DNA of 64,000 nt from Escherichia coli. Lineage in GTDB: Bacteria > Pseudomonadota > Gammaproteobacteria > Enterobacterales > Enterobacteriaceae. This document shows, piece after piece, positions 10,275 to 11,462 of the stretch. The stretch is taken from the NCBI RefSeq assembly GCF_030013595.1, contig NZ_CP122768.1. One strand, written 5' to 3'. Positions within the stretch are counted from its first letter, which is position 1. Each line of letters begins with the position of its first letter. Both the position numbers and the translations under genes were made by a program. The notes under the pieces are model-generated. The model searched no databases. It was not told the DNA's origin and saw only the letters and a program-made list of their open reading frames with translations.

Positions 10275-10988
10275 ATGTCATGCTCACGAGAAGAGTATCT
10301 CCTTCCTTATATTGGTGATGAATACTGGAATGAGCACAACATACCACTAGATGATAAAAAATACATAGTCGAAAGAACCTATTTTTTATATTATTACGAT
10401 AGTGATATTTTAATATTAACTCAAAATCATCTTGGGCCGAAAGAATCGGATTTAGCTTATCTGCTTTACAGCCAGAGTGGTAATCCTGGAAATAACTTTT
10501 CATTCCAAGCCATCTGGAAAAAAGAGAGCGTCAAAGAGCTACTTGAAACAGGAAGTACTTTGAGAAGTTGTGATATTGTCCTGGCTGCTCCCAGGAACTT
10601 TGATGCAACAAATTACCAGCTAAATAGTTCATTTTCTAAGGAACTGGTAAATATGATGGTAGGGCTGGGTGGAACACGTCTCAAGTTAAATCTAAGGGGA
10701 CGTGCATCAGGGAGAGTAAAAGTCAAAGGTTATTTATCAGATCTCGTTAAGGATGGTATTAAAGAACTCCTTGAAAAAATGCCGGGAATTGTAAAAAAAG
10801 CGGCAGTAACACAGCCCAAAAATACCGTTGAACAAAGTCTTCTTGATCAGGTACTCATTTCAGAAAAAAACATATATACCGTTAATGGTTATGGCACTGA
10901 TAGTGATGTTCTGCAAGCCATGATTTCTGCTAAAATTGATAACAATGAATACCTTAAGCAATACGATATCAGCAAAAAGAAGGTATAG
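10275..10988 (+). CDS. Hypothetical soluble protein, first gene of a two-gene moron (candidate abortive-infection/exclusion module)
   Basis: 237-aa ORF, AT-rich, no family recognised by eye. In-frame stop at 10044 with no earlier start. Three nt before the next gene. Confidence 0.65.
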   Translation: MSCSREEYLLPYIGDEYWNEHNIPLDDKKYIVERTYFLYYYDSDILILTQNHLGPKESDLAYLLYSQSGNPGNNFSFQAIWKKESVKELLETGSTLRSCDIVLAAPRNFDATNYQLNSSFSKELVNMMVGLGGTRLKLNLRGRASGRVKVKGYLSDLVKDGIKELLEKMPGIVKKAAVTQPKNTVEQSLLDQVLISEKNIYTVNGYGTDSDVLQAMISAKIDNNEYLKQYDISKKKV

Positions 10989-10991
10989 GAT

Positions 10992-11435
10992 ATGTTATTG
11001 AAATACTTAAGAAACCTGATTGTAAGTGTTTTTTGCACCTTGTTCCTACTGAGGTATATCCCTCAGATGGGGCATGCTGACATACTTACAGCCTCCGGGG
11101 TTATTTCAACTGTATCCGGTATTTTATTTGGTTTTATTTTAGCCACAATATCAATTTTTAGTGCTGCTAGCGAAAACTCAAATGGAATAATAAAAGCATT
11201 AAAAAACAACAACATACTTCAATTTATTATTGTAAATCTATTAACCGCAGGTGCATCTTTAATTACGGCATGCGTTATTGCTTTGATAGCAATGTTTGCC
11301 AATGAAAAGACATTGTTACATGGAGAAAAAATAGAATTTATTTTAATTATCGAATCTTTATCTCTTCTTATCATTTCAGTAATAACTTTTGCCTTTACAT
11401 GGAGAAAAGTAAACTGGATACTCCCCCACATTTAA
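10992..11435 (+). CDS. Small inner-membrane protein with four predicted TM helices (RexB-like architecture)
   Basis: 147 aa with four hydrophobic segments; N-terminal LFLLRYIPQMG resembles the RexB N-terminus as recalled; tightly coupled to the upstream gene. Confidence 0.65.
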   Translation: MLLKYLRNLIVSVFCTLFLLRYIPQMGHADILTASGVISTVSGILFGFILATISIFSAASENSNGIIKALKNNNILQFIIVNLLTAGASLITACVIALIAMFANEKTLLHGEKIEFILIIESLSLLIISVITFAFTWRKVNWILPHI

Positions 11436-11436
11436 A

Positions 11437-11462
11437 AAGGGCAGAAATGCCCTTTTTTCTAC
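11437..11462. terminator. Bidirectional rho-independent terminator
   Basis: aaaaaGGGCAgaaaTGCCCttttttc: 5-bp GC stem flanked by A-run and T-run; sits between the + strand pair and the Q stop codon. Confidence 0.6.

Follow-up and report, generated by a model that had tools for sequence, protein, structure and literature searches.

The subject of this study is a pair of genes on the plus strand of a lambdoid prophage of Escherichia coli, lying in a window of 64,000 nucleotides (nt; the whole stretch of DNA analysed) from contig NZ_CP122768.1 of RefSeq assembly GCF_030013595.1, which we regard as a candidate two-gene abortive-infection or exclusion module of the RexAB type. The ATG-initiated open reading frame (ORF) of gene 1 in the window occupies 10275..10988 (+) and encodes 237 amino acids, and it is followed 3 nt after its stop codon by the ORF of gene 2 at 10992..11435 (+), which encodes 147. 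Both ORFs and the short gap agree with a preliminary description of this DNA, as does the AT-richness that it ascribed to the pair relative to the flanking phage genes, the G+C fraction being 0.34 in the module as against 0.42 in the adjoining gene for the antiterminator Q and 0.56 in the DUF968 gene and the lysis genes (0.49 across the whole window). The module is carried on the strand (+) opposite to that of Q and the lysis genes (-). It ends, as the same description had proposed, in a bidirectional terminator of its own: the hairpin AAAAAGGGCA-gaaa-TGCCCTTTTT(T), spanning 11434-11458, overlaps the gene 2 stop codon and adjoins that of Q, with folding energies, in kcal/mol, of -13.4 (plus strand, z -4.7) and -13.0 (minus strand), and being stable on both strands it can terminate both of the convergent transcripts. 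The module and its borders comprise the following features:

9894..9989, minus strand: conserved post-Q segment, the left edge of the insertion, recognised by its matches in E. coli genomes and lambdoid phages
9990..10047, plus strand: region upstream of the rexA-like gene, read directly, in which the promoter of the module is presumed to lie
10048..10176, plus strand: native start of the rexA-like (DUF6731) gene, here read as a 42-residue frameshift product with native sequence in its first 11 codons only
10076..10082, plus strand: homopolymer of seven A residues (A7), the site of the frameshift (eight, A8, in intact alleles)
10083..10988, plus strand: remainder of the rexA-like frame, equivalent to residues 13-313 of the intact protein, with its ATG-initiated part at 10275-10988
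10992..11435, plus strand: rexB-like gene for a membrane protein of 147 amino acids with four transmembrane (TM) segments (phrog_8552, E 4.7e-63; four helices)
11434..11458, both strands: bidirectional intrinsic terminator common to the module and the convergent Q gene, identified by hairpin folding
11459..11836, minus strand: gene for the antiterminator Q, convergent with the module and forming the right edge of the insertion

The 237-residue product, which had been taken for a complete protein, proved to be the tail of a larger one. The module region is 99.6% identical to that of phage cdtI, in which gene 1 (orf54) encodes 313 amino acids from a start codon equivalent to the ATG at window position 10048, and this ATG is preceded at a distance of 6 nt by a well-matching Shine-Dalgarno sequence (AAGG, 10038-10041). 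At 10076-10082 the window has A7 where cdtI has A8, and because of this difference the native frame ends after 42 codons (10048..10176). The ORF of 237 codons begins at an internal methionine, the first ATG in its frame, and has no Shine-Dalgarno sequence; the homologues of gene 1 are all about 290-340 residues long, and phrog_7651 matches the remnant from profile position 76 onwards (76-314 of 315, E 4.9e-118). The approximately 76 N-terminal residues that the remnant lacks correspond, in an AlphaFold2 model of the intact protein, to strand 1, helix 1, strands 2-3 and part of strand 4. As these are elements of the globular domain, an A7 allele, if real, should be non-functional, and the copy in the window is either inactive or mis-assembled at the homopolymer. 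In A7 genomes the Prokaryotic Genome Annotation Pipeline (PGAP) starts gene 1 at an ATC codon at window 10203 (261 amino acids) and gene 2 at an internal ATG at window 11067 (122 amino acids).

Although the preliminary description had recognised no family for the product of gene 1, the remnant matches, in addition to phrog_7651, the Pfam domain DUF6731 (PF20505) with E 4.9e-7 over positions 81-248 of the 295 in the model. A precomputed PF20505 match is attached to most of the close homologues, and the gene bears the RefSeq label "DUF6731 family protein". The family is small, with 56 representatives at E <1e-3 among 1.84 billion proteins, and is found mainly in Gammaproteobacteria; a literature search found no mention of DUF6731 or PF20505. 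The DUF6731 gene appears as "portal (connector) protein" in two records of Escherichia phages (ON470608 and ON470622). Searches of both ORFs with PADLOC, NCBIfam and Pfam recovered only DUF6731 and noise (RTasSLATT at E 0.12, MtrF, Tmemb_14).

The comparison of structures and profiles with RexA and RexB that the preliminary description had called for is given first for gene 1. The intact protein (313 amino acids, basic, isoelectric point (pI) 9.25) was modelled with AlphaFold2 on 35 homologues, and the model is of good quality, with a predicted local distance difference test (pLDDT) score of 82.7 and a predicted template modelling (pTM) score of 0.77. When it was used as a Foldseek query, the best match was RexA (E 6e-8), followed by RdgC (E 5e-5), with all remaining matches above 1e-3; RdgC, together with IML3 and CHL4, is among the structural neighbours given for RexA itself (PMC11077077). 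The order of elements in the model, namely seven strands, a domain of four strands and a helix, and a kinked C-terminal helix, fits the published topology of RexA, and the model displays the features that define the RexA fold: a split globular domain with a seven-stranded sheet, a four-stranded dimerisation domain and the kinked helix at the C-terminus. Neither Pfam nor the fold search revealed an enzymatic domain in the DUF6731 model.

At the level of profiles, an alignment broadened to 84 sequences, by adding 49 distant representatives to the 35 homologues, could be aligned by hhalign with the RexA family in a colinear and nearly end-to-end fashion (255-265 columns), with a local P of 6.5e-4 (255 columns) and a global P of 3.4e-6 (probability 74%), a signal that is consistent but falls short of conventional thresholds; a reversed RexA profile used as a control gave P 0.33. 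The narrow alignment of 35 sequences was nearly negative in the same comparison (P 0.035), so that the signal appears only after the addition of the 49 distant representatives. DUF6731 and RexA have three short motifs in common: GF[YF] in strand 1, [LY]GP[KT]xxDL and F-E-x-[IL]-[WM]-[KR].

The product of gene 2 is a basic protein (pI 9.1) of 147 amino acids, with four hydrophobic helices in the Kyte-Doolittle profile and four helices in its AlphaFold2 model (2-22, 28-59, 75-102 and 114-146; pLDDT 87), in keeping with the earlier prediction of a small 4-TM protein. Its size and helix count are those of RexB (144 amino acids). No Pfam family was found for it; its family match is to phrog_8552. 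Alignment of the partner family with the RexB family by hhalign gave P 6.3e-4 (reversed control, 0.24) over a region spanning TM1, a conserved histidine and TM2. The loose N-terminal resemblance to RexB that had been noted by eye falls within this region, the stretch LFLLRYIPQMGH and its RexB counterpart LLFRHYIPGVSFSAH being the very ones that hhalign aligns (LLRYIPQ/LFRHYIPG). Hidden Markov models (HMMs) gave reciprocal signals for both genes, the RexA HMM placing 16 of 84 DUF6731 proteins and the DUF6731 HMM 10 of 20 RexA proteins above every reversed or shuffled decoy, and the RexB and partner HMMs likewise placing 5 of 21 partner proteins and 9 of 18 RexB proteins above every decoy. From these profile comparisons, sequence homology of both genes to the RexA and RexB families is likely but not proven.

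The two genes are inherited as a strict pair. In 93 of 93 loci drawn from genomes, metagenomes and IMG/VR, the gene immediately following that for DUF6731 is the partner gene, and the same pairing recurs in four further loci (L103, L104, PE001 and AUS531phi), so that it is kept in 97 of 97 loci; this answers the question, raised in the preliminary description, of whether the pair is conserved in other prophages. The pairing holds over identities from 100% down to 22%, and the partner proteins are homologous to one another. A Q homologue follows the pair in convergent orientation in 80 of the 93 loci. Elsewhere the context varies: in a prophage of Aeromonas hydrophila (L010) and in the Pseudomonas phage AUS531phi the pair stands directly after a cI-like repressor gene on the same strand, and in Vibrio cholerae/fluvialis it lies in a chromosomal island. 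In AUS531phi, a phage of P. aeruginosa (L226 1596-3782), the repressor belongs to the Cro/CI family and the partner has only 118 amino acids. In the integrated, tectivirus-like (Vinavirales) Vibrio element 10N.286.54.F4_PE001 (L225 1389-2896) the pair adjoins an integrase gene. This variety of contexts (Q, cI, integrase and Vibrio island) is the behaviour of accessory cargo. The pair in the window does not occupy the immunity-region position downstream of a cI-like repressor, being placed between Q and the post-Q segment; the described Rex-like systems are likewise not all located downstream of cI.

The left border of the insertion, the post-Q segment of about 95 nt (9894-9989), has matches in many lambdoid phages and, among 5426 E. 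coli genomes, in 2404, and a terminator scan detected in it an intrinsic terminator-like hairpin, CCGCCGTCGAGCGG+T6, at 9911-9899 on the minus strand. Phage 1720a-02 (Q 73% identical) has an empty site: the segment begins at the stop codon of Q and is followed by the late-region genes. The module (~9990-11458) is therefore an insertion between Q and the segment. In lambdoid phages the late promoter is situated a short way downstream of Q, and we accordingly infer that the post-Q segment holds the late promoter, its leader and the terminator, in which case late transcription would start beyond the module rather than run across it. Hence, of the earlier statement that the pair is antisense to the Q-to-lysis late transcript, the orientation stands, and the module is probably not crossed by that transcript. 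The same site is occupied by the DUF6731 pair in cdtI as in the window. There the Stx2a phage 1447 (AP012536 13770-15333) carries a different antisense two-gene unit, encoding 342 and 178 amino acids, for which PADLOC and NCBIfam gave no match; different cargo at one site suggests that the junction of the Q stop codon and the post-Q segment is a cargo hotspot. In the region where the promoter of the module should lie, two nucleotides (AT) present in cdtI are missing from the window haplotype at ~10009, in an A-rich stretch about 40 nt 5' of the rexA-like start; this deletion is common to the enterotoxigenic E. coli (ETEC) genomes ETEC1706 and ETEC4073 and is not present in ETEC4079 and ETEC1748.

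On the basis of the features described above (the fold and family of gene 1, the frameshift in it, the four-helix membrane architecture of gene 2, the strict pairing of the two, their terminator and their site of insertion), we consider that the locus is probably (at roughly 0.6) a RexAB-type abortive-infection or exclusion module carried as cargo by a lambdoid prophage. The layout of a RexA/RexB system and the candidate role in defence or exclusion, both put forward in the preliminary description, gain support from the RexB-sized 4-TM product of gene 2, whose family accompanies gene 1 in every locus, and from the hhalign match of its N-terminal stretch to RexB. A precedent is given by structure-only RexAB-like pairs, RexABpp of Pseudomonas putida and Sucellos of Vibrio, for which defence has been demonstrated by experiment. 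In this reading, gene 1 in its intact form encodes a basic, cytoplasmic protein of 313 amino acids with the two-domain fold of RexA and RdgC (split globular domain and four-stranded dimerisation domain), and gene 2 the equivalent of RexB, a four-helix protein of the inner membrane with 147 amino acids. In the mechanism that we propose by analogy with lambda RexAB, RexABpp and Sucellos, the lysogen would express the pair, and a dimer of the RexA-like protein would sense phage infection by way of a DNA or protein-DNA intermediate or of a phage protein. The dimer would then activate its membrane partner, presumably as a channel, which would damage or depolarise the membrane; growth would stop and the infection would be aborted, with phage exclusion as the predicted phenotype.

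Several observations weigh against this reading. 1) The Pfam and PADLOC models of RexA match neither the remnant nor the full-length protein (lambda RexA as control, 1e-108), and those of RexB match neither gene 2 nor any of 19 family members (the PADLOC RexB model detects lambda RexB at 9e-61). 2) A search of PDB sequences with the 35-sequence DUF6731 profile (hmmsearch) did not find RexA. 3) The HMM signals are weak (10-13 bits, and at most 13.5), and the members tested are mutually related, so that the counts are not independent. 4) The global TM-score of the gene 1 model against RexA is low (0.34-0.37), which we attribute to a different angle between the domains; in RexA itself this angle has been proposed to change on DNA binding (PMC11077077). 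5) The four-helix fold of gene 2 is generic and thus uninformative by itself: Foldseek matches of its model in AFDB50 are mostly uncharacterised four-helix proteins of ~145 amino acids from many phyla, and a protein of the RexB family (named "ExbB") appears only at rank 47. 6) A promoter scan found no sigma-70 consensus site on the plus strand of 9990..10047; over all sites, the 7 found are no excess over the 9.4 expected from shuffled sequence. 7) The copy in the window is frameshifted (A7). 8) Outside defence, RexA is reported to act in the lambda switch as well (PMC11077077).

A rival proposal is that the RexA-like protein is mainly a DNA-binding modulator of the prophage life cycle rather than an anti-phage sensor, acting either by biasing the lysis-lysogeny switch, as is reported of lambda RexA, or by modulating recombination in the manner of RdgC, with the membrane protein as its anchor or regulator. 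RexA without RexB can bias the lambda switch to the lytic state (PMC11077077), and the fold shared with RdgC, the basic character of the protein (pI 9.25) and the proximity of its gene to regulatory genes, Q or in distant members cI, all suit such a role. We nevertheless judge it unlikely in view of the strict co-inheritance with a membrane partner, the occurrence of the pair outside prophage regulatory regions (in the Vibrio island and beside an integrase gene) and the fact that every tested RexAB-like pair confers defence. A defensive pair might also work with its logic reversed, as in the mycobacteriophage Butters, whose gp30/gp31 is described in PMC12894663 as a Rex-like system in which the RexA-like protein is toxic and the membrane protein sequesters it until infection. 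The present data do not separate sensor from effector, but the same paper makes the membrane protein the effector in the other four described systems, and the DUF6731 model has no enzymatic domain; we regard the reversed arrangement as quite improbable. There is very little to commend a non-defence membrane function of gene 2, whether as a GtrA-like flippase of lipopolysaccharide (LPS) or O-antigen precursors, a transporter, or a holin or antiholin of the lysis cassette. It would accord with a small 4-TM protein near lysis genes, with a single GtrA-like protein in the AFDB50 search (E 0.011) and with a faint Hol_Tox match of one family member (E 0.07). However, Pfam and NCBIfam contain no match to GtrA, holins or transporters, and hence no sign of the clear homology to an LPS or O-antigen transporter that the preliminary description had named as refuting a role in defence; no GtrB or glycosyltransferase partner lies nearby, the actual partner being a protein of the RexA fold; and the module, which is oriented against the lysis genes and ends in a terminator of its own, is also found in places remote from any lysis cassette. 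The GtrA, holin and transporter readings were rejected for want of a model match and of cognate partner genes.

A separate issue is the status of the A7 tract. Among the 24 complete E. coli genomes with the module, 19 have A8 and 5 have A7, and all five of the latter come from one Belgian pig-ETEC sequencing project in which sister genomes have A8 (e.g. ETEC6333 vs ETEC6334, with chromosome lengths 5 bp apart). A7 is present on two different haplotypes, and one of the A7 assemblies, ETEC1706, also shows a C5-to-C4 change, equivalent to window ~11419-11423, which frameshifts the 3' end of gene 2 and supports the occurrence of homopolymer errors in these assemblies. This distribution is typical of such errors, and we would give about even odds that A7 is an assembly artefact and that the strain carries an intact gene for 313 amino acids. 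Speaking against an artefact are three IMG/VR contigs from other isolate genomes (L030-L032) that also have A7. If, on the other hand, the frameshift is real, to which we accord somewhat less than even odds, then the module is a pseudogene in decay or else a contingency locus, turned on and off by slippage at the A8 of codons 9-12. The recurrence of A7 across independent data sets and two haplotypes fits this alternative, as does the truncated terminase gene of the colinear prophage of ETEC4090, which suggests prophage decay. Phase-variable genes with tracts right after the start codon are known, and the tract here is so placed. Conversely, efficient slippage in E. coli proficient in mismatch repair would ordinarily call for a tract longer than A8, and gene 2 and the remainder of gene 1 are free of other lesions; the restriction of the A7 complete genomes to one project, with A8 in sister genomes, tells against a real frameshift too.

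The neighbourhood of the module is that of a lambdoid prophage. To its right, all on the minus strand, are Q, the DUF968 gene and genes for KilA-N, RusA, a LexA-like protein and Dam; to its left, also all on the minus strand, are an AraC-type regulator, tRNA-Gly, two holins and an M15 endolysin. The AraC-family gene (9027-9878, -) comes just after the post-Q segment and precedes the lysis genes; its closest relatives are YdeO (NCBIfam E 9e-42) and GadX (9e-30), both under the curated cut-offs, and it looks like a further item of prophage cargo. The tRNA-Gly gene (anticodon TCC; 8535-8609, -) separates it from the holins. Annotations transferred from the colinear ETEC4090 locus place an AT-rich gene that PGAP names "lipopolysaccharide core heptose(II)-phosphate phosphatase" at ~6392-6967 (+), just past the endolysin, and a PGAP pseudogene of the terminase large subunit without its C-terminus at ~3880-5465 (-). 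Owing to the truncation of this terminase gene, the prophage may be defective.

No abortive-infection system has been known for longer than RexAB, whose trigger and signalling from RexA to RexB are still unresolved; its described relatives number only a handful (PMC12894663). Structure-only relatives of RexAB in prophages are already published, so that the earlier characterisation of the present system as undescribed applies at most to this sequence family, and what is new is a specific, testable function for a DUF family and its partner. Linking DUF6731 and its obligate partner to RexA and RexB would 1) provide a functional hypothesis for genes now labelled hypothetical or "portal protein"; 2) reveal a gap in what the RexA/RexB models of Pfam and PADLOC v2 can detect; and 3) supply many divergent pairs for the comparison of residues, such as those of the GP..DL and GF[YF] motifs. 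The Q-adjacent site may also be a useful place in which to seek prophage-borne defence genes in pathogenic E. coli. A more ambitious synthesis, which taken as one joint claim we hold tentatively and consider doubtful, is that the DUF6731 pair forms an unnamed clade of the RexAB superfamily, apart from lambda RexAB, RexABpp and Sucellos, that temperate elements of several kinds carry it from one gammaproteobacterium to another, that in lambdoid phages it has settled in a cargo hotspot between Q and the late promoter, and that the A8 tract in codons 9-12 serves as a slippage-prone on/off switch.

Among known proteins and systems, RdgC of E. coli (PDB: 2OWL), a recombination-associated DNA-binding protein, resembles the DUF6731 model less closely than RexA does, and differs from the DUF6731 protein in being encoded by a chromosomal housekeeping gene, in forming a ring-shaped dimer and in having no membrane partner. 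The Rex-like pairs of actinobacteriophages (Sbash gp30/31, CarolAnn gp44/43 and Butters gp30/31) may be likened to the present one by description: they too are prophage-encoded, theirs being a heterotypic defence, and combine a cytoplasmic RexA-like protein with a RexB-like membrane protein. Their RexA homologues dimerise and bind DNA non-specifically. They differ in their Gram-positive hosts and, for Butters, in the reversed roles of the two proteins.

The RexABpp system (PP_5643/PP_5644 of P. putida prophage P1; Rosendahl et al. 2026), whose locus we recovered from a published primer sequence, requires both genes; its RexA-like protein binds DNA, and overproduction leads to RexB-dependent membrane damage (PMC12894663). 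RexApp (330 amino acids) has no Pfam match and no similarity to DUF6731 in hhalign or HMM comparisons, and RexBpp (188 amino acids) is not related to the partner family. We therefore rejected membership of the DUF6731 pair in the RexABpp family, hhalign giving P 0.37 for both genes and the HMM scores being negative. In Sucellos, the SclA and SclB proteins of an integron cassette of V. cholerae N16961 are both required and act by abortive infection, and homologues are reported "preferentially in prophages, often in Salmonella" (bioRxiv 10.1101/2024.07.02.601686). We infer that the genes concerned are VCA0367-0368. Like the DUF6731 pair, Sucellos consists of two genes that are structurally RexAB-like without matching the Rex models of Pfam, and its distribution resembles that of the DUF6731 pair (prophages of Enterobacterales, and Vibrio); on this comparison, made by description only, it may be either the same family or a separate one. 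An exact scan of genome contigs with the Sucellos primers gave no match; among the matches listed by a scan for the repeat core of V. cholerae attC sites, V. mimicus integron cassettes had no DUF6731 gene; and cluster look-ups of 20 distant relatives led to Aeromonas, Pseudoalteromonas, Thiococcus and Serratia, with no V. cholerae integron protein among them.

A further comparison is with lambda RexA/RexB (PF15969/PF15968; RexA PDB: 8TWQ). The differences are evident: identity over structural alignments is about 9-14%, the Rex models of Pfam and PADLOC do not match the pair in the window, the DUF6731 protein is about 35 residues longer, and this pair stands beside Q, and convergent with it, rather than in the immunity operon. 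There are also likenesses. In both systems, a basic, cytoplasmic protein of the RexA fold is followed within a few nucleotides by the gene for a basic 4-TM protein of ~145 amino acids (313+147 amino acids in the DUF6731 pair, 279+144 in lambda), and the two genes form AT-rich prophage cargo; both genes of the DUF6731 pair show weak, colinear profile similarity to their lambda counterparts. Moreover, distant members of the DUF6731 family sit directly after cI, in the same arrangement as cI-rexA-rexB of lambda.

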